Positions 852 through 14,032 of a DNA stretch of 19,722 nucleotides are shown here, one piece after another (position 1 is the first letter of the stretch; each line of letters begins with the position of its first letter). The stretch comes from a virus (lineage: Duplodnaviria > Heunggongvirae > Uroviricota > Caudoviricetes). The position numbers and the translations under genes are program-made. The notes below the pieces were generated by a model. That model saw only the letters and a list, made by a program, of their open reading frames with translations. It was not told the origin of the DNA and did not search any database. Where the stretch lies: IMG/VR virus record IMGVR_UViG_3300021319_000003. One strand, written 5' to 3'.

Positions 852-1269
852 ATTAAGAAACAAACTCAATGAAGAGCGTGGCTCGATGACAGGACTCTGC
901 TCCACCGAACTTGCTTTGGAAGTATGCAATATAGTGATGGATGAATGTAGCGCGCCTACGTTTGCAGGAAACAGTATTGCAGAAACTGAAGTGGGTCACT
1001 TTGCCATAAGTTTCGACGCAAGGGAATTTAGTGGCTGGCTCCGTGAATACGTCGCTACGGACATGTCATTTTACATGACAGAAAGGATGAGCCGGCTACT
1101 GGAATACTTTGGTATCAACCACACGGTATGGTCTGCCTATAAGGGAGTCCGCCAAAAGGACTTCCGGCATATCAGTCTGCCTATGTCCAAAATCCGCAAG
1201 GAATATCCGTACCTCTGGAAAACATGGAGCGGAGAGCCTATTTATCCAGAGGAAACGAGTGTAGCGTAA
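838..1269 (+). CDS. Hypothetical phage protein, 143 aa
   Basis: AAAGGAG RBS before ATG 838; overlaps the upstream stop; ends -SVA. Confidence 0.8.
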   Translation: MTKDELRNKLNEERGSMTGLCSTELALEVCNIVMDECSAPTFAGNSIAETEVGHFAISFDAREFSGWLREYVATDMSFYMTERMSRLLEYFGINHTVWSAYKGVRQKDFRHISLPMSKIRKEYPYLWKTWSGEPIYPEETSVA

Positions 1270-1288
1270 TCAGAAAGGAAGATTTGCT

Positions 1289-1681
1289 ATGAAAAAGTAT
1301 GCACTCAAAATCATCCGTGACAACGTTGTGGTAGTCCCAAACTGGGAAGTAACGCCCGTTAAGTTTGCAACGCTGGCGTTTGAAATGGTTATCCATAAAT
1401 ACCTGCCCGGTTCCTTTGACCGCTGGAAGGTGGTATCCCAACATGGCTGTTCCGTTAAGTATAAAGATGTGCTTACGGGAGAAACTGCATACTGCTGGCT
1501 GATGAAAAACGGCCGCATGGTAACGGACTTCGATGCGGAAGATAAACCGCAGGGGAGTCCGCTTACTGTATTTGCCGGCGGTAAGGCTGTACCGTGTGAT
1601 GACGCGCGCATGGCCGCCCGCATGACTGTTCATGCCATCTTCGAATCCCTTCGCCGGCCCACTGCACGCCGTGCTTCATAA
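1289..1681 (+). CDS. Hypothetical phage protein, 130 aa
   Basis: GAAAGGAAG RBS, MKKY start, tight packing. Confidence 0.8.
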   Translation: MKKYALKIIRDNVVVVPNWEVTPVKFATLAFEMVIHKYLPGSFDRWKVVSQHGCSVKYKDVLTGETAYCWLMKNGRMVTDFDAEDKPQGSPLTVFAGGKAVPCDDARMAARMTVHAIFESLRRPTARRAS

Positions 1682-1695
1682 GAGGAGGTTATCAA

Positions 1696-1848
1696 ATGGA
1701 AATTATCATTGTTGGCATGTTCTTTGCCGCCTTTTGTTCTGTTGCCGCGCTCATCGCATGGGGAATCATTTCCCTTGTGATAGATTGCATTAAGGGCCTG
1801 TTCACGAGCAGTGAGCCCAAGAAGAAACCCTACGGCTATAGAAGGTAA
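1696..1848 (+). CDS. Small single-pass membrane protein, 50 aa (not in ORF track)
   Basis: GAGGAGG RBS. MEIIIVGMFFAAFCSVAALIAWGIISLVIDCIKGLFTSSEPKKKPYGYRR has a hydrophobic N-terminal half and a basic tail. Confidence 0.75.
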   Translation: MEIIIVGMFFAAFCSVAALIAWGIISLVIDCIKGLFTSSEPKKKPYGYRR

Positions 1849-1855
1849 TGCCATT

Positions 1856-1890
1856 TCGCGCTTCGCGCGATATTGTCTTGTTTATTTTGA
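1856..1890 (+). promoter_or_regulatory. Hairpin + conserved tail element, copy 2
   Basis: TCGCGC-TTC-GCGCGA-TA-TTGTCTTGTTTATTTTGA; about 40 nt upstream of the RBS and ATG 1928. Confidence 0.65.
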
Positions 1891-1927
1891 GATGGTTTAA
1901 GGACGCATTGTGAAAGGAGCGTTTATT

Positions 1928-2071
1928 ATGAAAAAGACGTACATCTCGATTGAATGGGGCGACACTCGTACCCGGTTTGAACGGGCCGAAGCAATCAAGA
2001 AAGCCTTGGAGCTTGTAGCCCGCAAGGCAAAACCGAATACCCAGGAAGAAGCCGCCCGCAAAGCGGCTTAA
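1928..2071 (+). CDS. Hypothetical protein, 47 aa, ends -KAA (not in ORF track)
   Basis: GAAAGGAG RBS; MKKTYISIEWGDTRTRFERAEAIKKALELVARKAKPNTQEEAARKAA. Confidence 0.75.
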   Translation: MKKTYISIEWGDTRTRFERAEAIKKALELVARKAKPNTQEEAARKAA

Positions 2072-2085
2072 TTTTTTTGTTTTGT
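2049..2085 (+). terminator. Intrinsic terminator-like hairpin overlapping the stop codon
   Basis: AAGCCGC/GCGGCTT stem followed by AATTTTTTTGTTTTG. Confidence 0.55.
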
Positions 2086-2118
2086 TTGTTGTTTGTTGAA
2101 AAAAGGAGATTGAAAACC

Positions 2119-2535
2119 ATGGAAATTAAAATGAACTTCACGAAAAACGAAATGGCAACCATAGAGAAACTGCACAAGGCCTACAACCAGGCCTTCGGCC
2201 GCGATGACCACTACGAGGTAACAGGCCCTGTCCGCTTCTCCGTAAACCATATGCGCGGCGAAGCTACGGTTACGCTGGCCTTCAATGAGTTCTCCACTTG
2301 CGACATCATGGATATCGCAATCCGCAACAGCCACCTCGTCAAGAGTCTGGGTGCAACGGCAAAAGCACTGTTCGAGCTGGGCAAGAGCACGCTCAACATC
2401 CTGGAAGGCGAGCTCAAGTCGGTATGTGCCAAGTACAAGGAGAAGCCGAAGGCACAGGAGACAAGCGAGAAAAAGCCCTTTGGAAGTTTCGTTTCCAAAG
2501 AAGACATCGATGAAATGAATAACAAGGCGGCCTGA
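2119..2535 (+). CDS. Hypothetical protein, 138 aa, ends -KAA
   Basis: AAAGGAG RBS before ATG 2119; by eye, codon bias typical of high expression. Confidence 0.85.
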   Translation: MEIKMNFTKNEMATIEKLHKAYNQAFGRDDHYEVTGPVRFSVNHMRGEATVTLAFNEFSTCDIMDIAIRNSHLVKSLGATAKALFELGKSTLNILEGELKSVCAKYKEKPKAQETSEKKPFGSFVSKEDIDEMNNKAA

Positions 2536-2594
2536 CCCGAGCAGTCTGTCGCCTTACGGAATAACAAGATAAATGATAAAGGGAGATTGGGAAT

Positions 2595-2768
2595 ATGAAG
2601 AAACTGTTGAACTGGTATTTTGGAAATGGTATTGCGGCAGACGATAAAAGTATTCTGGCGCGAAGGCAGAAGATAAGCCAGGAAGCCAGAAACGTAATGG
2701 GCCAGGCAGTAGACGTGATTGCAACCGGTGCAGTCGTATTCTATGCCGTGGCTAAGAATATGCGCTGA
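2595..2768 (+). CDS. Hypothetical protein, 57 aa (not in ORF track)
   Basis: AAAGGGAG RBS; MKKLLNWYFGNG...VIATGAVVFYAVAKNMR with a moderately hydrophobic C-terminus. Confidence 0.65.
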   Translation: MKKLLNWYFGNGIAADDKSILARRQKISQEARNVMGQAVDVIATGAVVFYAVAKNMR

Positions 2769-2790
2769 TAAGAAAGGCAGGTTGTTAATC

Positions 2791-2958
2791 ATGTTGAATA
2801 CCAATGCAAATATTGAAAAAATCCGCAAACACAATCGTATGCACAGCGAGGGGCAGGAGCGTCGTATCCGTGACCGCGCAAAGCGGAAAATGACCCGCCG
2901 TGATTACGAACGGCTTGCGGAAGAAAAAGAATACGCCGGCTACAAAATCGCCGCGTGA
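2791..2958 (+). CDS. Small basic protein, 55 aa, ends -KIAA
   Basis: AGAAAGG upstream of ATG 2791; Arg/Lys-rich. Confidence 0.7.
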   Translation: MLNTNANIEKIRKHNRMHSEGQERRIRDRAKRKMTRRDYERLAEEKEYAGYKIAA

Positions 2959-3032
2959 TAAATTCTCGATAGAGACGCCGCAGGATAATATCCTCTTGTC
3001 TGGATAGTGCCGTCTCCGTCGATACACCCTCT

Positions 3033-3067
3033 TCGCCCTTCGGGCGATATTGTCTTGTTTATTTTGG
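3033..3067 (+). promoter_or_regulatory. Hairpin + conserved tail element, copy 3
   Basis: TCGCCC-TTC-GGGCGA-TA-TTGTCTTGTTTATTTTGG. Confidence 0.65.
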
Positions 3068-3134
3068 GCTTCCCGGTAATCCCCTGAAAACATCCCCCAT
3101 GCTTTTCACTTTCTCGCTGGGAAGCCTATTTTTT
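3066..3134 (+). ncRNA. Candidate small RNA or terminator with a C5 apical loop
   Basis: GGGCTTCCCGG/CTGGGAAGCCT 11-bp stem (two G.U pairs), inner TGAAAA-CAT/ATG-TTTTCA, loop CCCCC, followed by ATTTTTT. Confidence 0.45.
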
Positions 3135-3164
3135 ATTGATTGAACAGTAAAGGAGTTAATCATC

Positions 3165-3428
3165 ATGTTATTTTGCAGTGATATCGAAACGTTATTTCCT
3201 GGTACGTATCACCGTCACATCAATGCGCACAGACTGACTACTTTGTGCGACAGCTTCCACAGTGTCAGCCATGACAAGCTGGATACCATCCGCAAGGATA
3301 CCCGTGATGGCGAGCTGGTTATCGCCGCCCGCCTGAAAACCGACTATGGTGAAACCATCTTCTTTACCGATAACACGACTTTCAACGACCTCGTGGCTCT
3401 TAGCGAGGAGGCTAAAGTCGCCGCATAA
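3165..3428 (+). CDS. Hypothetical protein, 87 aa, ends -KVAA
   Basis: AAAGGAG RBS and ATG 3165. Confidence 0.8.
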   Translation: MLFCSDIETLFPGTYHRHINAHRLTTLCDSFHSVSHDKLDTIRKDTRDGELVIAARLKTDYGETIFFTDNTTFNDLVALSEEAKVAA

Positions 3429-3556
3429 ATCCCCACCTTGGCAAACGAGGAGCATTAAGCTCTTCGTTGTGTGCTAAAGAGTGCCCCCTATCACTTTTCA
3501 GCATACAACGAAAGGCTTAAATCTTACAGCCACGGCTACCCTCTCATCAAGAGCTT

Positions 3557-3592
3557 GTCTGCTCCGCAGACGATTGTCTTGTTTTTTATGAG
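3557..3592 (+). promoter_or_regulatory. Hairpin + conserved tail element, copy 4
   Basis: GTCTGC-TCC-GCAGAC-GA-TTGTCTTGTTTTTTATGAG. The stem sequence differs from copies 1-3, but the fold, loop type and tail are kept. Confidence 0.65.
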
Positions 3593-3789
3593 GGATTTGG
3601 ACCTCGGACATACAGGCTATATACTAATAATTCATGCCTGTCAACCTGTCCCGTCCTACAGCTACAGCTGGATTATCCTTTCATCGTATACCCTACCCAG
3701 AAGGACAGCGCGTCCAGAAATGTTAACATGTATCCCGCCAAAGCGAAATGCTAATAAATGAGCGGGGCAAGAAAAGGAGAATGATAATT

Positions 3790-4734
3790 ATGGCAACCAA
3801 TGTAAATGTAAACGCAATCGTAAAAGAACAGGCTCAGGCACCGGTATCCCGTCGCGCCGCAATGCTCGCAGGTCTTTCCAAGCAGATGGAAGCAGTAAAT
3901 ATCCTGACTGACAAGGCCCGCGCAAAACGCGAAGAAGAGCTCAAGAACAACACCGTCATCATGTCGGTTGTTTCCTCCCGTGGTTATGTTGGCTTCGTAG
4001 CAGGCGATATCGCAGAGAACATCGTAGAACCCGCGCTGGTTTGCCCTGCAGTAAATACCAAATCTGGTGAGCGTCTGTCGGCTCCCGTTGCTACGCTTAT
4101 CGGCGCCAGCAAGGCTATTGCCAAGGCCGAAACCTATGGCAAGGAACATCTGGTTCTTTATGTCAACGACTTTGAGGCCCGCCGTCTTAGTGGTATGCTC
4201 TCCCGCATCAACAAGGGTGACAACACCGTGCTGACGCCTGCAGAAAAGGAACATATCAACGATGAACGCAACAGCGCGAAATATGGTCAGGCCTACATGG
4301 CAACGGCAGGCACGGTATTCAAAATGCTCCAGGACGCAAAACAGAAGTTTAAGTCCGTACGCGTTATGGGCCACAGCTCCATCTTTGGCTGGGAAACCCG
4401 CTACAACCTTCCGCTCGACATGGAAAACATGGAACTGACCTTCGTGAAAGGTTTGGCTTCCACCATGCACAAAGGGCGCAACTACCGCATCACGCTTGCT
4501 TCGGGCTTCAAGCTCAATGGCAAGCATAAGCTGGTTAAGGCTAACGGCAACCTCGTGGTAGAGCGGGAAATCAAGGCAGGCTCCGAACAGGAAACCGCCC
4601 GTGACCTCTTGTCCATCGCCAACCAGACGATTATCATTGAGGACGCCAAGAACCGCAATGAAGAATTCGTCGGCGACATGGAGGCTGTTGCAGAACCGCA
4701 GGAAGAATCCGCAGGTTTCGACTTTGCCGCATAA
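3790..4734 (+). CDS. Hypothetical protein, about 314 aa, ends -DFAA
   Basis: AAAAGGAG RBS, ATG 3790 (alternative 3781), strong codon bias; weak RNase H-like pattern in the middle. Confidence 0.88.
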   Translation: MATNVNVNAIVKEQAQAPVSRRAAMLAGLSKQMEAVNILTDKARAKREEELKNNTVIMSVVSSRGYVGFVAGDIAENIVEPALVCPAVNTKSGERLSAPVATLIGASKAIAKAETYGKEHLVLYVNDFEARRLSGMLSRINKGDNTVLTPAEKEHINDERNSAKYGQAYMATAGTVFKMLQDAKQKFKSVRVMGHSSIFGWETRYNLPLDMENMELTFVKGLASTMHKGRNYRITLASGFKLNGKHKLVKANGNLVVEREIKAGSEQETARDLLSIANQTIIIEDAKNRNEEFVGDMEAVAEPQEESAGFDFAA

Positions 4735-4748
4735 GTGAATGAAACAGG

Positions 4749-4781
4749 CTGGACTGCTCAAGGCGGGCAGTCCAGTTTTTG
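4749..4781 (+). terminator. Intrinsic terminator
   Basis: CTGGACTGC/GCAGTCCAG 9-bp stem followed by TTTTTG, 14 nt after the stop. Confidence 0.7.
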
Positions 4782-4806
4782 TCGTCAAGAAAGGACGGAA
4801 AGAAAA

Positions 4807-5100
4807 ATGATTATGAATAAAGTATGCCCGAAATATATCGTATTCCCGAAATCCAACAACCGCGCCAATTCCAAAGTAACCTGGACGCTTCGTAAGAACC
4901 TTACGAATGGCTGGGTAAATATTTCCGCCAAAATTCCGCAGACCTGCATTGACGCATATGGTCTGATTGACCCCGAGGTTATGCACCTGCTTCGTACACC
5001 GTGCACAAAGAGCCGTTTCGCTCTCCGTTCCCTGTACAGGGTAGAGGTCAGTTATGATTACCACCTTATCGAAGACGCGGTTATGCCGATTGCCGCTTGA
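4807..5100 (+). CDS. Hypothetical protein, about 97 aa, ends -PIAA
   Basis: AAGAAAGGA upstream of ATG 4807 (alternative 4813). Confidence 0.75.
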   Translation: MIMNKVCPKYIVFPKSNNRANSKVTWTLRKNLTNGWVNISAKIPQTCIDAYGLIDPEVMHLLRTPCTKSRFALRSLYRVEVSYDYHLIEDAVMPIAA

Positions 5101-5132
5101 TAAGGTAACAGCCCCTTGAGGAGGGATTTTGT

Positions 5133-5867
5133 ATGGCAACCGAAAAAGACAAAACAACTGCCCAGGGGGCAAATGACCCTGTTCTCGATTTCCTGGGCGG
5201 TACTCTGGAAGCAATGCTTGGTCCAGACCTGAAAGAAGAACCGCCACAGGAAAAAATCGAGGACGCAGAGATTACAAAAGACGTACAGGAGGAAGAAAAG
5301 ATGAGTAAAGAGAATGTGACGACGATTGACAATGAAACGGGAGAGGTTCTGCAGGATAAGTTCAGCAAGAAGTTTGAATCCCGTCAGGAAGCGAACAACC
5401 TGCTGGATTTGCTCGACAGCCTCGGCTATGAAGACAGCTATGAAACCAGCGATGGCGGTAAGACGGTTATCCTCTCGGGTGTTTCCGCAGAGGATTTACA
5501 GCTTATCCAGCGCAAAGCGAACATCAAGCTCTGGTCTGACCGTACGCAGGCGGTAGCAAAAGCCGTCACCACGTTTGCAACGGATGTTGCTGACTATGCC
5601 CTGAATGGCGCACTTGCACCGACGGCTGGTGCAGTCGTAAATGCTGGTATGACCACGGGCCGTGTTGTGGCCACCGCCGCAGTTTCTGTTGGCGCCGCAA
5701 CGCTTGCAACGACTATCCGCAATGGCCGTGCCGCCGCCCGTGAGCTTTCCCGCAACAAGGATGTTCAGGATGCCTGGAATGAAGTAAAGGGTCTGGGCTC
5801 CGACATTGGCGGTCTGCTCTTCGGCTCCAAAGGCAGTTCCAAGTCTGATTGGACTGCTTGTGCCTGA
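5133..5867 (+). CDS. Hypothetical protein, 244 aa, acidic N-terminus and Ala/Gly/Val/Thr-rich C-terminal half
   Basis: GAGGAGGG RBS; a second in-frame start with AGGAGG at about 5301 (MSKENV...). Confidence 0.85.
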   Translation: MATEKDKTTAQGANDPVLDFLGGTLEAMLGPDLKEEPPQEKIEDAEITKDVQEEEKMSKENVTTIDNETGEVLQDKFSKKFESRQEANNLLDLLDSLGYEDSYETSDGGKTVILSGVSAEDLQLIQRKANIKLWSDRTQAVAKAVTTFATDVADYALNGALAPTAGAVVNAGMTTGRVVATAAVSVGAATLATTIRNGRAAARELSRNKDVQDAWNEVKGLGSDIGGLLFGSKGSSKSDWTACA

Positions 5868-5880
5868 TAAGTAAAGAAAC

Positions 5881-5917
5881 GTCCGTCCGCTATTTTTTTG
5901 GCGGGCGGATTGTTTTT
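5881..5917 (+). terminator. Intrinsic terminator
   Basis: GTCCGTCCGCTA/TGGCGGGCGGAT stem of about 12 bp with G.U pairs, followed by TGTTTTT, directly after the 5867 stop. Confidence 0.7.
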
Positions 5918-5944
5918 ATAAGTTACTCAAAGGAGGATACCGTT

Positions 5945-6082
5945 ATATTTGCTTTATTGTTTGCCTTATTCGAGTTAGGTTCTGAAGTGAACCAGTTTAT
6001 CGAAATAGAAGTTGAAAAGGACGAGCGCGAAATCAGAAGACTAAAAGGCGAACAGCAAAAAGCGCGCGCCCGTAAATCCTAA
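5945..6082 (+). CDS. Possible 45-aa protein with a non-canonical ATA start, or a decayed gene
   Basis: Perfect AGGAGG (5931-5936) 8 nt before an in-frame ATA; reads (M)FALLFALFELGSEVNQFIEIEVEKDEREIRRLKGEQQKARARKS. Confidence 0.35.
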   Translation: MFALLFALFELGSEVNQFIEIEVEKDEREIRRLKGEQQKARARKS

Positions 6083-6403
6083 TCCGAAATTCATGCTTAC
6101 GAAAGGAGTGAGATAAGCACCATGGTAACTATTGTGACATATTTAAGCAAGCTATACAAAACAAACGCTTCCAGAAATATGACATATTCAAGAAACATAG
6201 CTTATGTCACAAACGCCTGTAAAAATACCAGCCCCTTCCCCACCCATAAACAAGAAGAAAGACCACTTACTTATCTCATGGGTAAAAAGGCTGATAAGTG
6301 CCCGAAGGATTTCCGCCCAGGACTTATCCATGGCCGTCCCCATACCTACCCCTCGGGAGGGATTAAGGCACCGCCCGCTAAATTGGCTCCAGGGATTTAG
6401 CTT

Positions 6404-6457
6404 AACCTTATGAGCGCAGATAGACTGTATTCGGTTAGCAAAACCTTATGAGCGCAG
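6404..6457 (+). repeat. 16-bp direct repeat AACCTTATGAGCGCAG x2, with a third variant at 7217-7232
   Basis: Exact copies at 6404-6419 and 6442-6457; AACCTTGTGAGCGCAG at 7217-7232. Confidence 0.85.
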
Positions 6458-6533
6458 TCTTATCAGCAAAACAAAGATAAGACAAACATAAAGGTTAAGA
6501 TAAAGAACATAAAGAGCTTATTTATATATACAA

Positions 6534-7184
6534 GCGAGCGAGCGAAGCGAGCGAGCATAATAACAAGCTAAAAAAAAGAAATAAATAGAGCTTGTTTAAA
6601 AAAGCGAGCGTAGCGAGCGTATATAAAATAAGACAAAAAAGAAAACAAGAAAGAAAAAAGATTTAAGATACAAACTTTTACAGGAACAGTAAAAGTAGTT
6701 CAAAGTATATTAAATCAAAAAAGATAAGACAATGACAATATCTTAAATAAAATAAAAGATATTAAGTCATGTCCTTATCAAGGGGCGAGCGAAGCGAGCC
6801 CCGTTAAACACTACAAAAGGGCGTTACATCATTCTGTCCCAAGTAAATTCCCTATCTACTGGATACAGAATTATCCCATTTCTCCCTTCTCGTGTATATA
6901 CAAATATATATCCCCATATATATTCCCCTCTTTATACCGCAAGGGGAGAAAGAGTATTCACATACTCCGCCCGCTACTACCCGCGCGCGACCTCCGGCGC
7001 GCAAATTGTATCGTTCTTTATGCATATATTAATTATATCATTCACACACACCTCTAACAGGATATACATATATATACTACACACTCCCCATATATAGGAG
7101 TGCTGTTCGATATATATATACCAATATACACATAAAGAGCCATATAATTTAGGGCTTCAGGCGGGCGAGCGTAAGCGAGCCCGC
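6534..7184 (+). repeat. Four GCGAGC-GN(N)A-GCGAGC hairpin repeats
   Basis: Copies at 6534-6556, 6604-6618, 6782-6802 and 7161-7184; a CGC-GAA-GCG mini-hairpin at 7276-7284. Confidence 0.85.
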
Positions 7185-7435
7185 AATACAACAAGTGTGC
7201 TAAGAACGGTTACTTGAACCTTGTGAGCGCAGCACACGTATCTTTGCCTGACATACCCAGGAGCAAAAACCAAAACGCGAAGCGCAAAATTAATAAAATA
7301 TAAATCTGTAAACCAAGTCCATAGAAAGAGTACACAAGTATTACAATAAAAATACAAGTGAACGAAATTCAAGAAAAAGATATATTCTCCCCTATAGGGA
7401 AAATAATACTTTTTGAAAGACAGGTTTACACTTTG

Positions 7436-7548
7436 GACAAATTTTGCAAGACAAATTTTTCGCGGTGCAGATTTTTGAAAACTCCGGGACAAATTTTTTA
7501 CTGCAGTCCACCAGCAAAATTTCTGAACTGGATTTTGCGGACAAATTT
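7436..7548 (+). repeat. GACAAATTT(T) direct repeats x4, with a fifth at 7995-8004
   Basis: Copies at 7436, 7450, 7488, 7540 and 7995. Confidence 0.75.
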
Positions 7549-7805
7549 GCGGAAGGCAAACCAAAAACGCCAGACACATCTGAAATACAGATTTTCGAAG
7601 TGGCATTTGTAAAAAGTTAGTTCCAAAACGCCCGCTACACCCGTTATCTTTAACGTAGCGCGACGATAGCAGGATAATTTTTAAAAAGTGCCACAAGGAA
7701 ATTGGAGCTTCATATGAGGCTAATTTGGCCCATACAGGGGAGATTCGATGAGGTACGATTCAAGCTCCGTTTTTCAAAAAGCGTTATATTATCGCTTTAA
7801 TTCTA

Positions 7806-7834
7806 TTGATGTACCTAGTCCGCCCCATTATTAT
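7806..7834 (+). promoter_or_regulatory. Candidate sigma70/sigmaA promoter
   Basis: TTGATG-17 nt-TATTAT. Confidence 0.4.
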
Positions 7835-8123
7835 AGTGTCTTTTACCCCTCTATCGTGTTCCTTGTTCCTCTATCCTTCCCCTTGTTGTAGCATGCTATG
7901 TAGAGTCCGTTGCCGCAGGCAAGTATCCGAGTTATCCCCTTGATAATGCTGGAGGTAGACGAGTTAGAGCGTAAAGAAAAAGAGGTAAGTTTTTGACAAA
8001 TTTTTTGGAGCGAGGTTGCACCGAGGCATGTAAAAGATTGTTCTGAACGGTAAGGAGAAGTACCCTAATACCGATTTATTTTTCCTTAATTACAAGTTCT
8101 TGAGATTTTTATACACCCCTTAC

Positions 8124-8153
8124 TTGACAATGAGGTGGTTATCCGTGTATATT
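8124..8153 (+). promoter_or_regulatory. sigma70/sigmaA-type promoter for the downstream gene run
   Basis: Perfect TTGACA, 18-nt spacer, TATATT; 85 nt upstream of ATG 8238. Confidence 0.7.
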
Positions 8154-8237
8154 ATGTTAGGTAGATTAAGAATACGTTAGTAAGATTAGAGAGATTGAAT
8201 AAAGAGATAGAGAGATAAGCAAGGAAGGTGTATACTG

Positions 8238-9002
8238 ATGAAGGTATATGAACTGATACGCGAACTGGCCAAGTGCGACCCCAACAAAGATGTGGAAGGT
8301 AGCATGAAGAATAAGGATAACATCCCTGAAAGCTATAGTGTTAAGCGTGTAAGAGACTCAGGTTTATTAGATACAGTCTGGGTTGAGTTTGAGCCACACG
8401 CATACAAAAAGCAGCGCGCGGTAAAGAATAGCAGTAAGACTGCGCCGGAGAAGATGACGAGAAAGCAGTTCTTCTATCGGATGGTTAGAGACAACTGGAA
8501 TGAAGAGTTCCAGGGCGTAGCCCGGCATGTCTGTGGAAGAATGCCATACTATGTACTTGCTGATGTAGATATATTCCTGGAAGCGTTCTCGAAGCTGTCC
8601 GATAAGGAACAGATATATTATATTGAACACATGGCAGAGTACGAAGGTTCTTTTCACCAGCTTAGTGAACCTCATCGGCATCAGTTAAGCTGCATCAACG
8701 AAGATAACTACAATAAGAGCGCTAAGTATCTGGTTACGGTTATGTTCAAGTGGCATAATACGGAGGCGCCGAGTGATGACCACATTACGGAACAGAAGTT
8801 TATCTCGGACTATTATATTGATAGTACGGAAGATAAGACTGTAAAAGAGATTGTTAAGAACGTATGGAAATGTTGCAGCGGACACTATGAAAACGAGCCG
8901 CCGCGCAAATATAGAAATGGCCTTGAGTTCCGGTACAGCAGTTGGTGCTGGTGTTACATCGCGGTAAAATCAGAGCCATTGCTTATCGAGACAGATGAAT
9001 GA
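8238..9002 (+). CDS. Hypothetical phage protein, 254 aa
   Basis: AAGGAAGG RBS; MKVYELIRELAKCDPNKDV is a typical phage small-protein N-terminus. Confidence 0.85.
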   Translation: MKVYELIRELAKCDPNKDVEGSMKNKDNIPESYSVKRVRDSGLLDTVWVEFEPHAYKKQRAVKNSSKTAPEKMTRKQFFYRMVRDNWNEEFQGVARHVCGRMPYYVLADVDIFLEAFSKLSDKEQIYYIEHMAEYEGSFHQLSEPHRHQLSCINEDNYNKSAKYLVTVMFKWHNTEAPSDDHITEQKFISDYYIDSTEDKTVKEIVKNVWKCCSGHYENEPPRKYRNGLEFRYSSWCWCYIAVKSEPLLIETDE

Positions 9003-9027
9003 TTGAATAAGACAGGAGAGATATAAA

Positions 9028-9459
9028 ATGGCAGAAGTTAAGACTATGGCAGAGAATATGGCATTTGACTGGAGAGACTTTGAAAAGTACGGAGTAGAGG
9101 CGGTTGTTCTCTGCAATGTAGAGGATGAAGATAAACCTGTACTCGGCATCTGCGCAAAAGGTATGGGAACCTATGGAGGCGAAGAGTATATTCTTGAGCG
9201 CTTGAGCTATGACTATGCCGAGAGAGAAGGAGAAAGTGACCTGAGCCTTGAGAAGTGGATGTATAAGCATGCAGACAAGCTCGCTTCTCTTATCTGGAGA
9301 TACATTAACGAGGGCCTGTACTTGGACTCGAAAGAAGATGTATGGTATGCAGATAAGGTATGTCTCTATACACCCGCGAGCAAAATTCCGTGGCCGAGAA
9401 TGCCCAAGGGCTTTAAGGTGCGGAAAGAGAATGAGAATATAAAGCTTATCATGCATTAA
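9028..9459 (+). CDS. Hypothetical protein, paralog of 9930-10295
   Basis: AGGAG RBS; shares FDW.DF, E.YI..RL and WMY.HADKLAS motifs with the paralog. Confidence 0.85.
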   Translation: MAEVKTMAENMAFDWRDFEKYGVEAVVLCNVEDEDKPVLGICAKGMGTYGGEEYILERLSYDYAEREGESDLSLEKWMYKHADKLASLIWRYINEGLYLDSKEDVWYADKVCLYTPASKIPWPRMPKGFKVRKENENIKLIMH

Positions 9460-9496
9460 GTAAGTAAGAAGAATAAGAAGGAGAATATATAGAGCT

Positions 9497-9913
9497 ATGT
9501 CTTATACATTAACTGTTAATATCAATCTGGAGAGTATGGATATAGAATCGCTTAAAAATCTGCGCGCCGAAATTGATAAGCTGCTCGCAAAGAAACAGCT
9601 TGCCAGTAACCTGCCGAAGTTAAGTGGCAGCCTGAAGCAAAAAATGCAGAACAACCCAACGCTTGCTCCAGAGCTCAGCAAAAGGTTTTATGCAGTAGGC
9701 TGTAAAAACCTGGAAGACATATATAACTATCCGCCCGAAAAGATGGTCTGGCTGGAAAAACTTACCCTGTCAAGCATTGACCATACCCTGTATGTATTAA
9801 AAGCCCATGGGTACGATTACGAAATGCGCTGGATTACCACTGTAAATGAGATGAAGGATAAGCTCCGGCAGATTAAGAAAGAGAAGAAGGACGGCAGATT
9901 TTCAGTAGCTTAA
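9497..9913 (+). CDS. Protein with a degenerate RNAP alpha-CTD-like (HhH) domain, paralog of 13273-13821
   Basis: AAGGAG RBS; shares G...DIY..PP...L.K...L...GYDYE..W..T..EM with the paralog. Confidence 0.7.
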   Translation: MSYTLTVNINLESMDIESLKNLRAEIDKLLAKKQLASNLPKLSGSLKQKMQNNPTLAPELSKRFYAVGCKNLEDIYNYPPEKMVWLEKLTLSSIDHTLYVLKAHGYDYEMRWITTVNEMKDKLRQIKKEKKDGRFSVA

Positions 9914-9929
9914 AAGAGGAAGAGACTAT

Positions 9930-10295
9930 ATGATGTATGAATTTGATTGGGAAGATTTCAGAGAAGACGGCATCGTGGCCTTTGAGCTGACAACAGAAGG
10001 TGTGACGGTCGTCGGATTAAAGCATGCGCACACTTTTGTGGATGAGGACTATATCATTAAGAGACTGCAGGAAGAATACAGTAAGAGAAACATGGTTCTC
10101 GAAGAAGAATTAACCTTTGAATACTGGATGTACTTCCATGCAGATAAACTTGCTTCTTATATTGTACAGTATGTTAAAGAGGCAGTAGAAAAGAATGATA
10201 CAGGAGTTAAGTATATATATATACTACAGGAAGAGCGGCCTAAGAATAGAAAGCCGTCAGAATATTGTGATTATAATTTATGCGCGCGGAGGTGA
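9930..10295 (+). CDS. Hypothetical protein, paralog of 9028-9459
   Basis: GAGGA RBS; WMYFHADKLAS motif. Confidence 0.85.
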   Translation: MMYEFDWEDFREDGIVAFELTTEGVTVVGLKHAHTFVDEDYIIKRLQEEYSKRNMVLEEELTFEYWMYFHADKLASYIVQYVKEAVEKNDTGVKYIYILQEERPKNRKPSEYCDYNLCARR

Positions 10296-10301
10296 AGTAA
10301 C

Positions 10302-10625
10302 GTGACACTTGAAGAAAAGATGGAAGCTGTTGACAGGGTGGTCACTGAGATGGATGTGACACTTCTGGACGCAAAAAGAAAGCAGGAACGCCTCAGGAAT
10401 ATTATGAAAAGGGTCCGGGAACTGACAATAGCCATTGACGCCAATAAAGACTGGTCTACTGATGCAACGCTCTATACAGAGAAACACGGCAAGTTTACTG
10501 CAACCGGCGATTGGAAAATGATCGGAGTGACGGTTGAACGGAAGAAATTGATTGAGTTCTTAAAAGCTCAGAAAGAGGACTACCTGAAAGAGGCAGCCGA
10601 AATCACAGAGGAATTCATTAGGTAA
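10302..10625 (+). CDS. Hypothetical coiled-coil phage protein, 107 aa
   Basis: GGAGGTG RBS with GTG start; shares a G..V.....I.FLK.QK motif with the next gene. Confidence 0.8.
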   Translation: MTLEEKMEAVDRVVTEMDVTLLDAKRKQERLRNIMKRVRELTIAIDANKDWSTDATLYTEKHGKFTATGDWKMIGVTVERKKLIEFLKAQKEDYLKEAAEITEEFIR

Positions 10626-10661
10626 CGTTTACAGTACATGTAAAAAGGAGAGAAAATTGTT

Positions 10662-10937
10662 ATGGAAAATATTGAGCAGAAACAGAATGCAGACTCCTTA
10701 AGTGCAGCAAGGGATATAAGATACCAGCTGCAAAGAGCAGTCAACTGTAATACCGCTATAAAGAATGCAGAAGAAGTGGCGGGCGATGATATCGTAATTG
10801 CACTCATTGAAAACGGCACGTTCGGATTCTCTGTTGATAAACAGGACTTCATTAAGTTCTTAAAGAAACAGAAAATGAAAGCATTTGCAAAAACCTGCGT
10901 ATTCCGTGAGCAGTCGCTGAAAAATGATGAAAAATGA
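10662..10937 (+). CDS. Hypothetical protein, 91 aa, related to 10302-10625
   Basis: AAAGGAG RBS; GFSVDKQDFIKFLKKQK. Confidence 0.8.
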   Translation: MENIEQKQNADSLSAARDIRYQLQRAVNCNTAIKNAEEVAGDDIVIALIENGTFGFSVDKQDFIKFLKKQKMKAFAKTCVFREQSLKNDEK

Positions 10938-11088
10938 GCGCCCGATAACCAAAAGAGATGTGGAGCACTTCCTTTGGGATTGCTCGGATAACGACCTGTT
11001 AAAAGTCTTGCTCTGGGCAGTTGGTGAGGTATGTGTAAGGTTCTATAAAAGTAAGCACAATAACACTGAAGAAGAAAGGAAGTCGTAA
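10927..11088 (+). CDS. Small hypothetical protein, 53 aa (not in ORF track)
   Basis: Fills the gap between 10937 and 11092 and overlaps the upstream stop; MKNERPITKRDVEHFLWDCSDNDLLKVLLWAVGEVCVRFYK... Confidence 0.55.
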   Translation: MKNERPITKRDVEHFLWDCSDNDLLKVLLWAVGEVCVRFYKSKHNNTEEERKS

Positions 11089-11091
11089 AGC

Positions 11092-11670
11092 ATGAGCGTT
11101 TTTATACAGAAGATGATGACTTGTGTAGACGGCCGTGATATTAAGGAAGTGCTGGGTGATGTTGCGCGCCCAATGGAAAAGGTTAGCTACAAACACACCC
11201 AGGAATATATTTCCGGAAAGTACGAATATGTCTTTGGGATGGTGCGCTACAATCATTTGGCAATCGACCTGTATGAAATTGCCCCACACCTGTTCGATAA
11301 AAAGAAGGATATGGAAGAAGGCTTCCTTATCCATGATATGAATGGTCATTTTGACGCAGAGGAAAAGTATCTGCGCTTTGGCTTCAAGGTTTTGAAGAAA
11401 GACGAAACCTGGACGACCTTCTCGCATCCGTTTTATAAAGAAGTGCTTGATACCTACTATCAGGAGGAAGTACACTTTGGTGACCACAATGAAATGTGGT
11501 GGTGTGGCAATTACCACATCAATGAAACGGTTGACTTTGCGGTTTCTTACAGATTCCCCGATACCGAGTTCGAGGTAAAAGAAATCTGCGAAAACGACCT
11601 GGTTGCGCATTATATCTTAAAAGCCGGCCGTATCGTCAAGAACCTTCTCAAAGAAAAGCAGGCAGCTTAA
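11092..11670 (+). CDS. Hypothetical protein, 192 aa, ends -KQAA
   Basis: AGAAAGGAAG RBS. Confidence 0.85.
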   Translation: MSVFIQKMMTCVDGRDIKEVLGDVARPMEKVSYKHTQEYISGKYEYVFGMVRYNHLAIDLYEIAPHLFDKKKDMEEGFLIHDMNGHFDAEEKYLRFGFKVLKKDETWTTFSHPFYKEVLDTYYQEEVHFGDHNEMWWCGNYHINETVDFAVSYRFPDTEFEVKEICENDLVAHYILKAGRIVKNLLKEKQAA

Positions 11671-11687
11671 TAGCAAAAGGAGTAGTC

Positions 11688-12353
11688 ATGGTAAAAATCA
11701 AAGAACTTAGTTTGTGGCAAAAGATTAAGGCGTTTATTCATGCACAGGCGCGGAAACATTTTGATGTGTTTCTTCTATCATGTCTTCCATTAAGAGGAAA
11801 GTTGTACCCTCTGGAAATGCAAGAGGTAAGAGTCTGTGACATTCCTTTTCAGTTTGAAGAAACAAAGACCTATCTACAGAAAATAGGATATGAAACGTTA
11901 TGGGATGTTGTTGCTAGGCTCTGCTTTAGTTATGACTTACTGCAGCACGCAAAGATATTTACAGACATATTGGATACTCTTAAGAATGAGTACAATGAAG
12001 ACCCATTACGGTATGACACCCTCCTGAATGAATACAAGGATACCTTATACAGGTCTCCTTATACTGGGTTTCTCGAAGTTGTTCAGGAAACTGTCTCGCT
12101 TTACAGAGAACTCGGGATGGAAAATACAGTTATGCCCGAGGAACGCTTTTGCCTGTGCTGCGATATGTGGTGGAGTGAAAACAAACTGGACTTTATCATG
12201 GATGAGTTCAATATTGTAAAAGGATATAAGTCTTTACAGGAGGACGTCTGGGAAAAGGCAAAAGAGTATGAAGCCGAATGGAAAGCATCAGTAAAGGCAG
12301 TTGAGAACTGGGATAAAGAGCACTATTGGAATCTTGGCAAAATGTATGTATAA
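11688..12353 (+). CDS. Hypothetical protein, 221 aa
   Basis: AAAAGGAG RBS. Confidence 0.85.
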   Translation: MVKIKELSLWQKIKAFIHAQARKHFDVFLLSCLPLRGKLYPLEMQEVRVCDIPFQFEETKTYLQKIGYETLWDVVARLCFSYDLLQHAKIFTDILDTLKNEYNEDPLRYDTLLNEYKDTLYRSPYTGFLEVVQETVSLYRELGMENTVMPEERFCLCCDMWWSENKLDFIMDEFNIVKGYKSLQEDVWEKAKEYEAEWKASVKAVENWDKEHYWNLGKMYV

Positions 12354-12380
12354 TAAAACAAGAAGAGGAGAAACGAGAAT

Positions 12381-13256
12381 ATGTTTGAAAAGATTGCTGT
12401 TCATAGCGGAGTATTTCACGCGGACGATGTAGTAAGTGTGGCCTTTATTAAGGAACTCTACGGAGAGAATATCCGGATTGAGCGAGTGAGCCAGCGGGAT
12501 GCGGAAACGCAGGGAAGACTTGCCGCCCGCGGATATACGCTTATCGATGTCGGCTGCGGAGAATTTGACCATCACCAGCCAGAGCACAAAACAGATGAAT
12601 ACAAATATGCAGATAACGGCATCCTGAAGAGCGCGCTGGGTCTGGTTTTGGACCAGTGCGTTGCGGATGGCAAGCTTCTGGCCGAAGAAGTAAAGTTTCT
12701 TCTCGACAAAGGGTTGTATACCCTGCAGGCAAAAGATAACGGCCAGGATGTAAAGAAGGACAGTCTCACGGATAGTCCTTTTGAATACATTGCCTGGCTC
12801 AACTGCGATGATATTTACAGTGAGGACCAGGACGAATTTTTCCTGGGCGCCGTGGATATTACGCAGGTTGTTGTACACCGTATGATTCTTGATGCCCGCA
12901 AGGTGGTAAAGGAGCATGAGGAATGTATTGAGGCGCTGCAGAATGCAAAAGACGGTATCGTAAACTTCCCACACTATATGACCAACGGCGTAAAAGAATG
13001 TCAGCGCTGGAATGAAAAACATACGCCGGAAGAAAGAATTCTGTTCATTACGTTCCCCGACGAAAAAGGTGGCGGATACAAAATCCGTGGTATCAATAAG
13101 CCTGGTAAGATGGAGGTTATTCAGTCTTTGCGCTTCTGCGGACTTCGCGATGAAGAACTCAATGAAGCTGCCGGTATCAGTGATGGTATCTTTGTACATG
13201 CCAATGGCTTCCTGGGAGGCGCCGGCAGTTTGGAGAGTTGTTACAAGCTGATTTAA
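12381..13256 (+). CDS. myg1: MYG1/UPF0160-family DHH-superfamily metal-dependent hydrolase (exonuclease-like)
   Basis: Motifs in the canonical MYG1 order: N-terminal HSGVFHADD, IDVG, FDHHQ, SALGLV, and C-terminal FVHANGFLGG. Confidence 0.85.
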   Translation: MFEKIAVHSGVFHADDVVSVAFIKELYGENIRIERVSQRDAETQGRLAARGYTLIDVGCGEFDHHQPEHKTDEYKYADNGILKSALGLVLDQCVADGKLLAEEVKFLLDKGLYTLQAKDNGQDVKKDSLTDSPFEYIAWLNCDDIYSEDQDEFFLGAVDITQVVVHRMILDARKVVKEHEECIEALQNAKDGIVNFPHYMTNGVKECQRWNEKHTPEERILFITFPDEKGGGYKIRGINKPGKMEVIQSLRFCGLRDEELNEAAGISDGIFVHANGFLGGAGSLESCYKLI

Positions 13257-13272
13257 GATGAGGACGATTAGC

Positions 13273-13821
13273 ATGGCAGAAAATAAGATGGCTACAATTG
13301 CCGCTATATACGGCAAGGAGCTTGGTGAAGACGTAATTCTGTTCGACACAGAAAGAGACAGCTATGTAAAGAGCAGGTTCTTAGATTCCGGCCTTCAAAT
13401 CTATGATGTGCCGAATGAAAAATGGATAGATGCTCCTTATGCATTGACCCATTTGTTGACTGGCCGGCTCGAAATTGCTGCAGAGAAGTCAAAAGAAAAG
13501 AGTACCCCTTTGCGCGTGAGAACTCCTGCGCGCTTAAACTTCTCTGTGGAGAAGATGTTTGGTGGCCGGATGAATACGCGGGCCAGAAATGTCCTGGAAA
13601 GAAATGGCTTTCTCGATATAAAAGACATTTACGACACGCCGCCGGCGGAATTAATGCGCCTGCCCAAGATGGGCGACAGTGTTATGACCTGTATTATCAC
13701 CAAGTTAAATATTTGTGGTTATGACTACGAAGGCCATTGGGGCATAACACTTAAAGAAATGTGGAAGCAGATGAAAATCATGCGGAAGGGGAAAAAGGAA
13801 CGTGACAGAGGAAAAATTTGA
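13273..13821 (+). CDS. Protein with a C-terminal RNA polymerase alpha-subunit CTD-like domain
   Basis: MNTRARNVLERNGFLDIKDIYDTPPAELMRLPKMGDSVMTCIITKLNICG matches the alpha-CTD pattern R..N.L..AGI....DL......L...PNLG.KS...I...L...G. Start chosen at ATG 13273 (GAGGA RBS); alternative 13258. Confidence 0.7.
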   Translation: MAENKMATIAAIYGKELGEDVILFDTERDSYVKSRFLDSGLQIYDVPNEKWIDAPYALTHLLTGRLEIAAEKSKEKSTPLRVRTPARLNFSVEKMFGGRMNTRARNVLERNGFLDIKDIYDTPPAELMRLPKMGDSVMTCIITKLNICGYDYEGHWGITLKEMWKQMKIMRKGKKERDRGKI

Positions 13822-14032
13822 AACAGCAAAGACGCTTATGATGCGCATTTGTGAAATGGAAAAACTTATCAAAGGGCTTAATAATGGAAACACCCCGGCA
13901 GAGATAATCGTTAAGGGTGTAGGGTTCTCCAGAGATACACAGATGGAACTTGCCCCTGAGATGAGAAAGACTATCGCAGGCGTGTTCAGCGAGCAAGTTG
14001 CGAAAGACAAAGAAGAATTCAAAAATCTGTAA
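13802..14032 (+). CDS. Small coiled-coil phage protein, 76 aa
   Basis: GTG start after AAAGGA; MTEEKFETAK...KEEFKNL. Confidence 0.75.
   Translation: MTEEKFETAKTLMMRICEMEKLIKGLNNGNTPAEIIVKGVGFSRDTQMELAPEMRKTIAGVFSEQVAKDKEEFKNL

Follow-up and report, generated by a model that had tools for sequence, protein, structure and literature searches.

A position-conserved, gene-free block with G·A-core hairpins lies between two sets of early genes in a 235-kb gut phage

Almost everything known about giant gut phages comes from metagenomes and, to our knowledge, no cis-acting site of theirs, be it an origin, a packaging site or a polymerase signal, has been mapped. The closest described counterparts come from elsewhere. 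The oriV of RSF1010 combines iterons, an AT-rich region and the opposed sites ssiA and ssiB. Promoters of the N4 virion RNA polymerase (RNAP) are hairpins with a 5- to 7-bp stem and a 3-nt, purine-centered loop, on the template strand and upstream of an early gene, and REP/BIME elements are short, stable, imperfect hairpins clustered between bacterial genes, often at the 3' ends of transcripts. The injection-stop region (iss) of phage T5 lies at the inner edge of a ~10-kb terminal repeat, contains eight DnaA or DnaA-like boxes paired in inverted repeats, and is preceded by the pre-early genes dmp, A1, and A2 (Davison, 10.1101/866236). Finally, DNA mini-hairpins of the consensus GCGNAGC/GCGNNAGC have been described by Hirao and co-workers at the complementary-strand origins of G4, St-1, and alpha3, at RSF1010 ssiA, and at N4 virion RNAP promoters (PMC13037366).

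Here, we analyze a window of 19,722 nucleotides (IMG/VR record IMGVR_UViG_3300021319_000003, Caudoviricetes) in which a gene-free stretch of 2.1 kb, at positions 6083 to 8237, separates two sets of early genes in a gut phage of 235 kb. A preliminary description had proposed an injection pause, a terminal-repeat boundary, a packaging signal or a replication origin. Our best explanation, which we hold tentatively, is an internal, position-conserved non-coding control region between two transcription units of the early plus-strand arm, which would combine hairpins at transcript ends with a site of cassette insertion and the right operon's leader.

Layout and borders of the block

The tripartite layout reported earlier is confirmed, with a GC fraction of 0.484 in the left genes (1-6082), 0.387 in the block (6083-8237), and 0.425 in the right genes (8238-19722). 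The Ala-Ala C termini noticed in the left genes are likewise real, being present in 5 of 10 left ORFs and 1 of 17 right ORFs. No long ORF is found in the block under table 11 or with stop-codon reassignments, and alternative codes (TGA=W, TAG=Q, TAA=Q) opened no convincing frame. The ORF at 6122-6400 shows 50% protein identity at ~74% nucleotide identity to relatives, and is not coding-like, since its substitutions are spread evenly over the codon positions (22/22/28, versus 10/6/21 in the neighboring small gene). A minus-strand ORF (7157-7696) was also rejected, having a Cys/Phe/Leu-rich product and a frame that is not preserved in relatives. ORF scans and codon-position tests thus leave no credible gene in 6083-8237, as had been claimed. 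No tRNA or tmRNA genes are present, Rfam 15 gave no match in the window at gathering thresholds, the sole Rfam match on 5800-8400 is a chance plant-miRNA hit (E 0.62), and megablast of 5500-9000 against phage records gave no match.

On the left, the cassette is closed by an intrinsic terminator on the plus strand (5881-5918; 12-bp stem and T run, identified by scanning) behind a 244-amino-acid (aa) gene. Its sequence is kept in relatives L001 and L002, and L099 and L078 carry positional equivalents behind the homologous gene. A plus-strand gene of 45 codons follows (5945-6082), recognizable by its substitutions by codon position; it starts with ATA (ATT in relatives), 8 nt behind GGAGG, and encodes a peptide with a hydrophobic N terminus and a charged tail that is 78% identical to that of L001/L002, with similar peptides in L077 and L079. 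As this small gene ends just to its left, the block start at 6083 was placed correctly. On the right, the TTGACA-18-TATATT promoter is borne out as a predicted sigma-70/sigma-A-type promoter on the plus strand (8124-8153; 11 of 12 consensus positions), 84 nt before the ATG at 8238 and within an island that is 84% identical in L002. The block thus starts right after a terminator and a tiny peptide gene and ends at a host-type promoter, and the conservation of both terminator and promoter argues for a control region.

The flanking genes gave few functional clues. For the 244-aa protein, Pfam (15 family members) and the ESM Atlas gave no function and a JGI metagenome scan found nothing; a protein upstream of the L075 block was considered as a relative and rejected by BLASTP and profile comparison. 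The ten left-hand ORFs matched no PHROG family at E up to 0.01, genes neighboring the block had no Pfam or PHROG match, a pattern search of IMG/VR gave no relatives of the right-flank gene, and the 1100-aa early protein has no sequence relative in the PDB. Pfam also gave nothing for genes beside hairpins in other phages.

Relatives with no more than 55 to 62% identity in the flanking protein show the same layout: a gene with its intrinsic terminator, then the small peptide gene, the box, the array of hairpins, and 2 to 4 kb of AT-rich gene-free DNA. The window, L002/L096 and L079/L099 share the succession of box, first hairpin, further hairpins and later box copy, which L077 and L078 show in part. 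Distant phages, which share only a capsid homolog (28 to 43% identity), also carry the hairpin together with a gene-free block of repeats, at a single site in each genome. The multi-copy direct repeats of the equivalent block differ from lineage to lineage, and nhmmer finds no homology between the block and other hairpin-bearing phage loci (including L065-L076) beyond the hairpin itself. Position and internal order kept across a broad phage lineage mark the block as a conserved functional boundary element and not junk. Two of the outcomes named beforehand as refuting, absence in close relatives and an assembly junction, did not occur: independent relatives are collinear across the block, and a DNA contig of run X1, possibly the source sample, bridges it (5462-8720).

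Hairpins, boxes and repeats within the block

The block carries four G·A-core mini-hairpins, H1 to H4, all on the plus strand. Within 6534-7184 lie 4 of the 7 matches to the hairpin pattern in 471 kb (both strands), all in plus-strand orientation, against a background of 0.4 per 100 kb. H1 (6534-6556) closes a GAA loop with 10-nt arms (GCGAGCGAGC) that include two tandem G·A steps; relatives carry it unchanged, and the same long form opens the hairpin array in L077 and L078. H2 (6604-6618; GCGAGC-GTA-GCGAGC) was recognized by pattern match and alignment, and the same AGAGCTTRTTTA box precedes both H1 and H2. H3 (6781-6803; GGGG-GCGAGC-GAA-GCGAGC-CCCC), also a pattern match, has a G-C pair that becomes A-T in L001/L002 via changes in both arms. 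Because such compensatory changes preserve the stem, these elements are genuine hairpins. H4 (7161-7184; GCGG-GCGAGC-GTAA-GCGAGC-CCGC) stands behind a conserved TATAAT (7143-7148), and in relatives this pair lies directly upstream of a Bro-N gene. A shorter plus-strand mini-hairpin, CGC-GAA-GCG (7276-7284), matches the DNA mini-hairpin consensus. A hairpin-like sequence at 14920-14934 is a coding coincidence within the signal-peptide part of ORF 14872-15228 (Ala-Ser-Val-Ala-Ser-Ala). A literature search found no paper with these exact hairpin sequences.

Upstream of the array, a plus-strand box, AACCTTATGAGCGCAG, occurs twice, at 6404-6419 and 6442-6457, 38 nt apart. This 13- to 16-nt box has a third copy at 7217-7232, and all three genome copies of CCTTRTGAGCGC lie inside the block. 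The box is kept in L002 and L096, and takes the form ACCTACCGAGCGC in L077, L078, L079, and L099, always a short way upstream of the first hairpin. Searching IMG/VR with the pattern ACCTTRTGAGCGCAG returned, beyond two known relatives, single copies on unrelated contigs that were judged chance. Farther right, a conserved plus-strand island (6949-7029; 78% identical) has a GC-only stem (GCGCGC...GCGCGC, ~6981-7002) followed by a T-rich tail.

The segment at 7185-7330 (plus strand) is a cassette junction with its tail, and includes the third box, a conserved GCCTGACATACCCA and the short mini-hairpin. At the equivalent position, L002, L096, and L097 hold a Bro-N gene of 663 to 670 aa together with a 3' G·A hairpin of its own; the insertion in L002 and L096 consists of this gene, the downstream hairpin and an 85-nt tail. 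This unit looks like a self-contained cassette with its own 3' element, which counts in favor of the control region. The right half of the block then contains five same-strand copies of GACAAATTT on the plus strand (7436-8003; starts at 7436, 7450, 7488, 7540, and 7995) out of six in the genome, within which GGACAAATTT occurs three times at 52-nt spacing; the palindrome TCTCCCCTATAGGGA (~7386-7400) lies just to the left. Hairpin, box and GACAAATTT copies are concentrated in the block, and its richness in repeats and palindromes is therefore above chance, as stated earlier.

Part of this conservation may reflect RNA. The plus-strand segment 6083-6460 is non-coding, ~74% identical to relatives with invariant blocks in the alignments, and contains a long interrupted stem in which 6132-6157 pairs with 6195-6212. 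It is conceivable, if quite improbable, that structured noncoding RNAs, one or several, are made from the left half (6083 to ~7190) and act in trans, for example as a regulator or decoy, whose terminal stems would be the G·A hairpins and whose processing or binding site would be the box. The segment is as conserved as the neighboring genes without showing codon periodicity, its RNA fold z-score is -2.67 with a conserved interrupted stem of 16 bp, its elements are strand-specific, and it is covered by RNA-library contigs. Against this, Rfam searches with E values of up to 1 gave no family, covariation is weak (5 pairs, several of them broken, from only two effective lineages), nhmmer finds no homolog in the distant loci L065-L076, no clear promoter was found, and RNA depth over 6240-7330 is low compared to neighboring stretches.

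Genome ends, DNA entry and the comparison with T5

Like the T5 iss, the block is a gene-free region of 1.6 to 2 kb behind a cassette of small early genes, with an order of repeats and palindromes that is kept among relatives (here the window, L002/L096 and L079/L099). A feature of virion DNA, be it the inner border of a terminal repeat, a site where packaging begins or a T5-like injection stop after the left cassette, would fit this layout. It would also fit the position of the block 12 to 19 kb downstream of the point where the gene arms diverge in G000 and G004, and the ends of about half of the relatives' contigs, which fall in or beside the block. We nevertheless consider such a feature very unlikely. 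The G000 contig has no terminal repeat and ends 71 kb and 162 kb from the block, and six assemblies cross the block (G000, G002, L078, L096, L097, and L099) with end distances that all differ. The contig breaks fall at strain-variable junctions and in DNA of 22 to 38% GC, either of which breaks assemblies; that contigs of relatives often break here, at such junctions, counts in favor of the control region. In run X1, DNA contig depth is ~4 to 6 on both sides of the block and not doubled on either, which is weak evidence. One contig, G001, ends inside the block, but its other end has no similarity to the 235.5-kb genome and it has no nucleotide match to 8238-19722; it is a fragment and uninformative on termini.

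The comparison with the T5 iss also fails on the sequence features that define it, as no terminal repeat, coverage step, DnaA boxes or A1-, A2- or dmp-like genes were detected. DnaA boxes (TTATCCACA, at most 1 mismatch) number 0 in 6083-8237 versus 0.85 expected by length, with 93 in the whole genome, and none of the left genes has a PHROG match. The cumulative GC-skew check suggested in the preliminary description places the minimum at 143 to 146 kb, 17 to 19 kb from the block. By that description's own refutation test, which named a location far from genome ends and skew inflections, the two functions tied to genome ends fare badly. We conclude that the block does not look like a genome end, and that the data support neither this reading nor a T5-type injection stop.

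Hairpins as possible transcript ends or initiation sites

A role in transcripts, which had not been considered before, is slightly favored by the placement of hairpins in other phages and by the gene cassette. In 8 of the 9 phage lineages seen, every hairpin shares the orientation of the genes that flank it; on the 35-kb contig L076, hairpins occur on both strands. G004-type phages carry a single hairpin 15 to 20 nt past a same-strand stop codon, in two gene contexts, and in L078 and L066 the hairpin overlaps the stop codon; in L065, a canonical terminator lies downstream of the hairpin. RNA nearest-neighbor folding favors the plus strand by 2 to 4.5 kcal/mol, whereas DNA nearest-neighbor folding, which includes neither sheared G·A pairs nor mini-hairpin bonuses, could not separate DNA from RNA. 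The plus strand is also purine-rich and transcript-like, with 49% A in 6461-6850.

RNA-library contigs cover the block, in agreement with transcription; as contigs, they give no information on strand or transcript ends. In run X6, the depth along the window differs by up to 16-fold, and its signal is therefore not only DNA. One X6 contig extends from 7333 into the right operon; another runs into adaptor sequence at 7039, which hints, if weakly, at a defined RNA end. In RNA run X12, the left cassette is silent whereas the bin 7239-7896 and the stretch beyond it are covered, with the caveat that uncovered parts of the window in X9 and X12 are no evidence of absence.

Under the control-region reading, the hairpins would act in the plus-strand transcript as 3'-end elements, either stopping a polymerase that disregards ordinary terminators or holding off exonucleases. 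Each gene cassette would bring one hairpin, and arrays could grow at sites of cassette turnover. The hairpins and the terminator may jointly insulate the left cassette from the right operon, and the right 0.9 kb would serve as leader and regulatory region of the latter. Several observations nonetheless speak against it. A U tract is absent from H1-H4, whose 3' flanks are A/C-rich; a GC-rich hairpin with a directly following U tract, which defines an intrinsic terminator, is found at 5881-5918 and not at H1-H4. The hairpin core has seven invariant columns over 39 instances, in phages down to 28% capsid identity, and such conservation exceeds the need of a plain terminator. G·U pairs are nearly absent (4 of 254 paired cells), and the hairpins are confined to one place per genome, in keeping with a cis site that is unique, for instance an origin. 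The loops seen (GAA, GTA, GTAA, GAAA, GCAA, and GTTA) fit the DNA mini-hairpin consensus, and GTTA does so without being a GNRA loop. The lineage-specific direct repeats in AT-rich DNA are, in addition, typical of origins.

Such points would suit an origin of phage replication, a reading that is compatible with the data but that we regard as unlikely. The AT-rich DNA would unwind, the lineage-specific direct repeats would bind an initiator, and the plus-strand mini-hairpins would be single-strand initiation signals, at which a primase or an RNA polymerase begins a primer after the duplex has opened. Hairpins of this type have that role at the complementary-strand origins of G4, St-1, and alpha3 and at ssiA of RSF1010 oriV. 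The apexes GC-GAA-GC, GC-GTA-GC, and GC-GTAA-GC are exact matches to a consensus documented at priming sites, and, like the described DNA mini-hairpins (PMC13037366), they fold on one strand only in the non-coding DNA of a phage. They differ in that a constant tandem G·A step, Y-G-A-R in both arms, and further pairs underlie the mini-hairpin, that they form arrays of four to six, and that they lie on the coding-sense strand, in other phages directly behind stop codons. With RSF1010-type iteron origins, the block shares same-orientation direct repeats (five GACAAATTT copies, three of them at 52-nt spacing) beside AT-rich DNA (GC 0.31 to 0.38) and strand-specific hairpins with mini-hairpin apexes (H1-H4 and 7276-7284, the stem being supported by covariation), all in one unique non-coding region. 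Scarce G·U pairs, direct repeats in the equivalent block of every lineage, a RecD-like helicase gene 8 kb upstream and a NAD ligase gene 20 kb downstream agree with an origin. However, the skew shows only a change of slope at the block and its minimum lies elsewhere, DnaA boxes are absent, and Pfam and PHROG searches identified no initiator or primase gene among the neighbors, with the DNA polymerase III alpha gene ~146 kb away. Furthermore, the GACAAATTT copies are mostly missing, only partly kept, in the 74%-identical relative L002, all hairpins lie on one strand, in contrast to the opposed ssiA/ssiB pair, and the fixed distance of hairpin to stop codon in other phages lacks an obvious meaning for an origin.

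A broader possibility, which we consider improbable, is that the tandem-G·A mini-hairpin array and its upstream 13-nt box are the deeply conserved start site of a so far undescribed system that initiates replication or transcription throughout a lineage of gut and rumen jumbo phages, down to 28% capsid identity. The hairpins would then extrude, or form on an exposed plus strand, and be read by a phage primase or a single-chain RNA polymerase. The GAA and GTA loops do resemble those of N4 virion RNAP promoters, but here the hairpin strand is the sense strand and no minus-strand gene lies to its left; Pfam gave nothing for three proteins of 2,234 to 3,081 aa considered as candidates for an N4-like virion polymerase. 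Short, stable, imperfect hairpins in intergenic clusters also recall REP/BIME elements, and the 18-nt hairpin GGCGAGCGTAAGCGAGCC itself occurs in multiple copies in several bacterial genomes, where its flanks are specific to each family (one rabbit-gut Clostridia MAG has at least 8 copies), the same hairpin having a T run in some bacteria, e.g., L119. Unlike REP/BIME, however, the hairpins occupy a single locus per phage genome and not many.

The block is a concrete candidate for a cis-acting site, with a position and internal order that are kept while the surroundings diverge beyond alignment, and every conserved base of its hairpins is explained by a specific non-Watson-Crick fold. It explains assembly breaks in these phages and is thereby useful to genome curators. 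Under any reading, it supplies a short oligonucleotide for binding-partner tests and a defined locus for end-mapping and replication assays. If the initiation system proves true, this jumbo phage lineage would have, in the block, its first origin or single-strand promoter cluster to be mapped.

Genomic setting of the gene-free block

The window spans positions 156,403-176,124 within one virus contig of 235,547 bp (G000), in which Pfam scans of large ORFs outline two arms. The minus arm (0-133 kb) carries DNA polymerase III alpha (15.6 kb) and the structural genes for sheath (~113 kb), capsid (121.6 kb), portal (126 kb), and tail lysozyme (130 kb). The plus arm begins near 146 kb with genes for 1,100-aa and 622-aa proteins and includes a RecD-like helicase (153 kb) upstream of the window, as well as a PcfJ-like protein (178 kb) and an NAD ligase (184 kb) downstream. 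The gene-free block (window 6083-8237, genome 162,485-164,639) is thus internal to the plus-strand early arm, with the divergence point 17 to 19 kb away and the nearer end of the contig at a distance of 71 kb. The two early proteins (G000 147702-152967, L092) jointly match one 1,336-aa protein of relatives (L079 4251-8261), so this gene occurs both split and fused. In relatives with the fused form, it lies only 2.4 kb before the block, while G000 has ~8 kb of additional small genes in between. We also observe a DDE transposase (DUF772 plus DDE_Tnp_1) at G000 1370-2854 (L086), 1.4 kb from the contig start, where an insertion sequence common to bacteria of the sample may have caused the assembly break.

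The tripartite layout noted in the preliminary description is confirmed: GC content is 0.484 in the left genes, 0.387 in the block, and 0.425 in the AT-richer right genes, and Ala-Ala ends occur in 5 of 10 left ORFs versus 1 of 17 right ORFs. The block also holds up as gene-free, with no convincing open frame under the standard code or stop reassignments and no credible gene. ORF 6122-6400 (92 codons) differs from relatives evenly across codon positions (22/22/28), with only 50% protein identity at ~74% nucleotide identity; the corresponding values for the small gene just left of the block are 10/6/21 and 78% protein identity. The minus-strand ORF 7157-7696 (179 codons) would encode a Cys/Phe/Leu-rich product, and its frame is not kept in relatives.

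That the block is a genome-end, packaging, or injection-stop site, as had been proposed, now seems very improbable. Five contigs (G001, G003, L077, L098, and L100) terminate within the block and a sixth (L079) just past it, far above chance. However, these breaks fall in DNA of 22 to 38% GC across the compared phages and, wherever a close relative permits a check, exactly where strains begin to differ; both factors, strain variation and low GC, are causes of assembly breaks. G001 is a fragment, with no relation to the G000 genome at its other end. Six assemblies (G000, G002, L078, L096, L097, and L099) continue across the block, which lies at a different distance from the contig ends in each. 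An assembly junction can be set aside, as one contig of the DNA run X1 bridges 5462-8720. Contig depth in X1, a weak measure, is ~4 to 6 on both sides, with no indication of the doubling that the edge of a terminal repeat should produce. No terminal repeat was found on the G000 contig. Its cumulative GC skew has a minimum at 143-146 kb and a maximum at the contig ends; the block lies 17 to 19 kb from this minimum and is kept in relatives. The injection-stop region of phage T5 lies at the inner edge of the terminal repeat and has eight paired DnaA boxes (bioRxiv 10.1101/866236), whereas the block has none at ≤1 mismatch, its contig lacks a terminal repeat, and a PHROG search of the left genes matched no family; these features do not bear out the analogy to T5, and nothing positive favors any of the genome-end readings.

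Strand-specific hairpins within the block

Reading rightward, an intrinsic terminator conserved in relatives (5881-5918, plus strand) precedes a conserved 45-codon peptide gene (5945-6082, plus strand), which appears to start with ATA here and ATT in relatives, with GGAGG 8 nt upstream. The peptide has a hydrophobic N terminus followed by a KDEREIRRLK-type tail, and the L077 version starts with ATG. A conserved noncoding segment of 380 nt follows, with a long interrupted stem (RNA fold z-score, -2.67; weak covariation). The box AACCTTATGAGCGCAG occurs in two copies 38 nt apart and a third 775 nt further, the only three in the genome. By pattern search, four plus-strand hairpins (GCGAGC-loop-GCGAGC) were located at 6534-7184, and the hairpin-bearing tract of 390 nt at 6461-6850 is 49% A. 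Also conserved are a GC-only stem that leads into a T-rich tail (6949-7029) and a TATAAT immediately 5′ of the fourth hairpin. A short hairpin (CGC-GAA-GCG) lies between the fourth hairpin and five same-strand GACAAATTT repeats, which occupy the right part of the block and comprise five of the six genome copies. The predicted promoter TTGACA-18-TATATT is found at the right end (8124-8153; score, 11/12), within an 84%-identical island of a relative.

The hairpins are real and strand-specific. The two middle bases of one arm, G and A, oppose A and G of the other, so that the plus-strand stem closes only with tandem G·A pairs and the complementary strand would carry C·T mismatches. The general fold pattern has seven matches in 471 kb (both strands), four of them within 6534-7184, against a background of 0.4 per 100 kb measured on unrelated viral DNA (490 kb). 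Base pairs counted on an alignment of 39 instances from nine phage lineages display compensatory double changes in seven of eight Watson-Crick pairs, a covariation reached in none of 500 shuffles; the four inner pairs are unbroken throughout, and G·U occupies only 4 of 254 paired cells. The conserved bases match the needs of the fold exactly: each G·A step is preceded by a pyrimidine and followed by a purine, a C-G pair closes the loop, and G and A are the terminal loop bases.

A literature search for the hairpin sequence gave no match in the searchable literature. The apexes do fit the DNA mini-hairpin consensus GCGNAGC/GCGNNAGC known from primase start sites of G4, St-1, and alpha3, from ssiA of RSF1010, and from N4 virion-polymerase promoters (PMC13037366). 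A contig of the DNA run X9 joins unrelated sequence at 6562, six bases past the first hairpin, and thus represents a strain variant with its junction right at this hairpin. A fifth exact hairpin sequence, GCGAGCGTAGCGAGC, at 14920-14934 is probably a coincidence; it lies in the signal-peptide coding part of ORF 14872-15228 (Ala-Ser-Val-Ala-Ser-Ala).

Conservation across phages and occurrence in bacteria

Two IMG/VR relatives, whose 244-aa flanking protein is 73 to 74% identical (tblastn; 105 homologs found), align across 5272-6812, with further conserved islands at 6949-7029, 7109-7185, 7329-7448, and 8077-8157. Near relatives carry, between the equivalents of 7185 and 7330, a gene for a Bro-N protein of 663 to 670 aa that the window lacks (L002 12205-14217; L096 12241-14232), followed by a 3′ G·A hairpin belonging to this gene and a tail of 85 nt. 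In some relatives, not including L096, a two-gene cassette (L002 15466-16970) separates the promoter from the homolog of 8238-9002.

In four more diverged relatives (L077, L078, L079, and L099; 244-aa homolog 55 to 62% identical), the homolog is again followed by a gene-free AT-rich block (2.6 to 4 kb) with four to six same-strand hairpins. An intrinsic terminator lies 3′ of the homolog in both relatives scanned (L078 and L099), and L077 and L079 have a small peptide gene. The box form ACCTACCGAGCGC stands just upstream of the first hairpin in all four and recurs further on in L078, L079, and L099. Apart from AT-rich ones, k-mers common to all six compared blocks derive only from the hairpin, and nhmmer detected no homology between the block and the hairpin-bearing phage loci L065 to L076. 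In distant phages (G003 to G006; capsid homolog at 28 to 43% identity), the hairpin is confined to one place per genome. It follows a same-strand gene's stop codon by 15 to 20 nt in L065, L068, L069, and L070 (L065-type loci with full flank) and in L067/L074; in L065, a canonical terminator comes next, then a gene-free stretch of at least 1.6 kb that is rich in AT and in repeats. This recurrence in near, diverged, and distant phages marks the block as old and as conserved in position across a broad lineage. About 9 kb downstream of the block in L099, a 172-kb relative, Csf3-like (faint) and Cas6 C-terminal Pfam matches (19772-20684) suggest a putative phage-borne type IV-like CRISPR-Cas module.

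Outside phages, bacteria from many phyla carry the exact 18-mer GGCGAGCGTAAGCGAGCC at no fewer than 120 loci, often in multiple copies per genome with family-specific conserved flanks. We find at least eight copies in the rabbit-gut Clostridia MAG Lapin-024 bin30 and five in a Hoeflea MAG; the hairpin therefore emerges as a widely reused structural module. Many Alphaproteobacteria carry it in a GGGAGGGT...GGGTGAGGGG context, an Ignavibacteriales MAG (L119) has a terminator-like T run after it, and in a Patescibacteria contig (L145) it adjoins a tRNA gene.

Possible DNA-level and RNA-level roles

A replication origin with single-strand initiation hairpins, to which the GTTA loop (not a GNRA loop), the scarcity of G·U pairs, the single locus per genome, and the adjoining AT-rich DNA and lineage-specific direct repeats would point, is unlikely but the foremost alternative. 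Other observations lean toward a transcript. The hairpins lie solely on the sense strand of flanking genes in eight of nine phage lineages (both strands in L076), their distance to the stop codon in other phages is short and fixed, and the Bro-N cassette has one at its own 3′ end. In addition, the plus strand is purine-rich and favored by RNA folding energies (2 to 4.5 kcal/mol), and RNA-library contigs, which show neither strand nor ends, cover the block. A locus encoding trans-acting structured RNAs is a reading that we consider improbable, ahead only of the genome-end, packaging, or injection-stop site.

The RNA-library run X6 shows 16-fold variation in depth over the window, so the signal is not just contaminating DNA, and one of its contigs extends from 7333 into the right operon; X12 is silent over the left cassette, with cover beginning in bin 7239-7896. 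These contigs, blind to strand and ends, hint that the right-operon transcript, or another RNA, begins upstream of the consensus promoter. X6 contigs enter Illumina adaptor exactly at 7039 (3′ side) and 2582 (5′ side), and position 7039 is 37 nt past the conserved GC stem at ~6981-7002. Such adaptor run-in is possible when many fragments share one end.

We tentatively place first, ahead of the origin, an internal inter-operon control block. It would combine a terminator with transcript-end hairpins that travel with gene cassettes, and may serve both as a site of cassette insertion and as the leader of the right operon.
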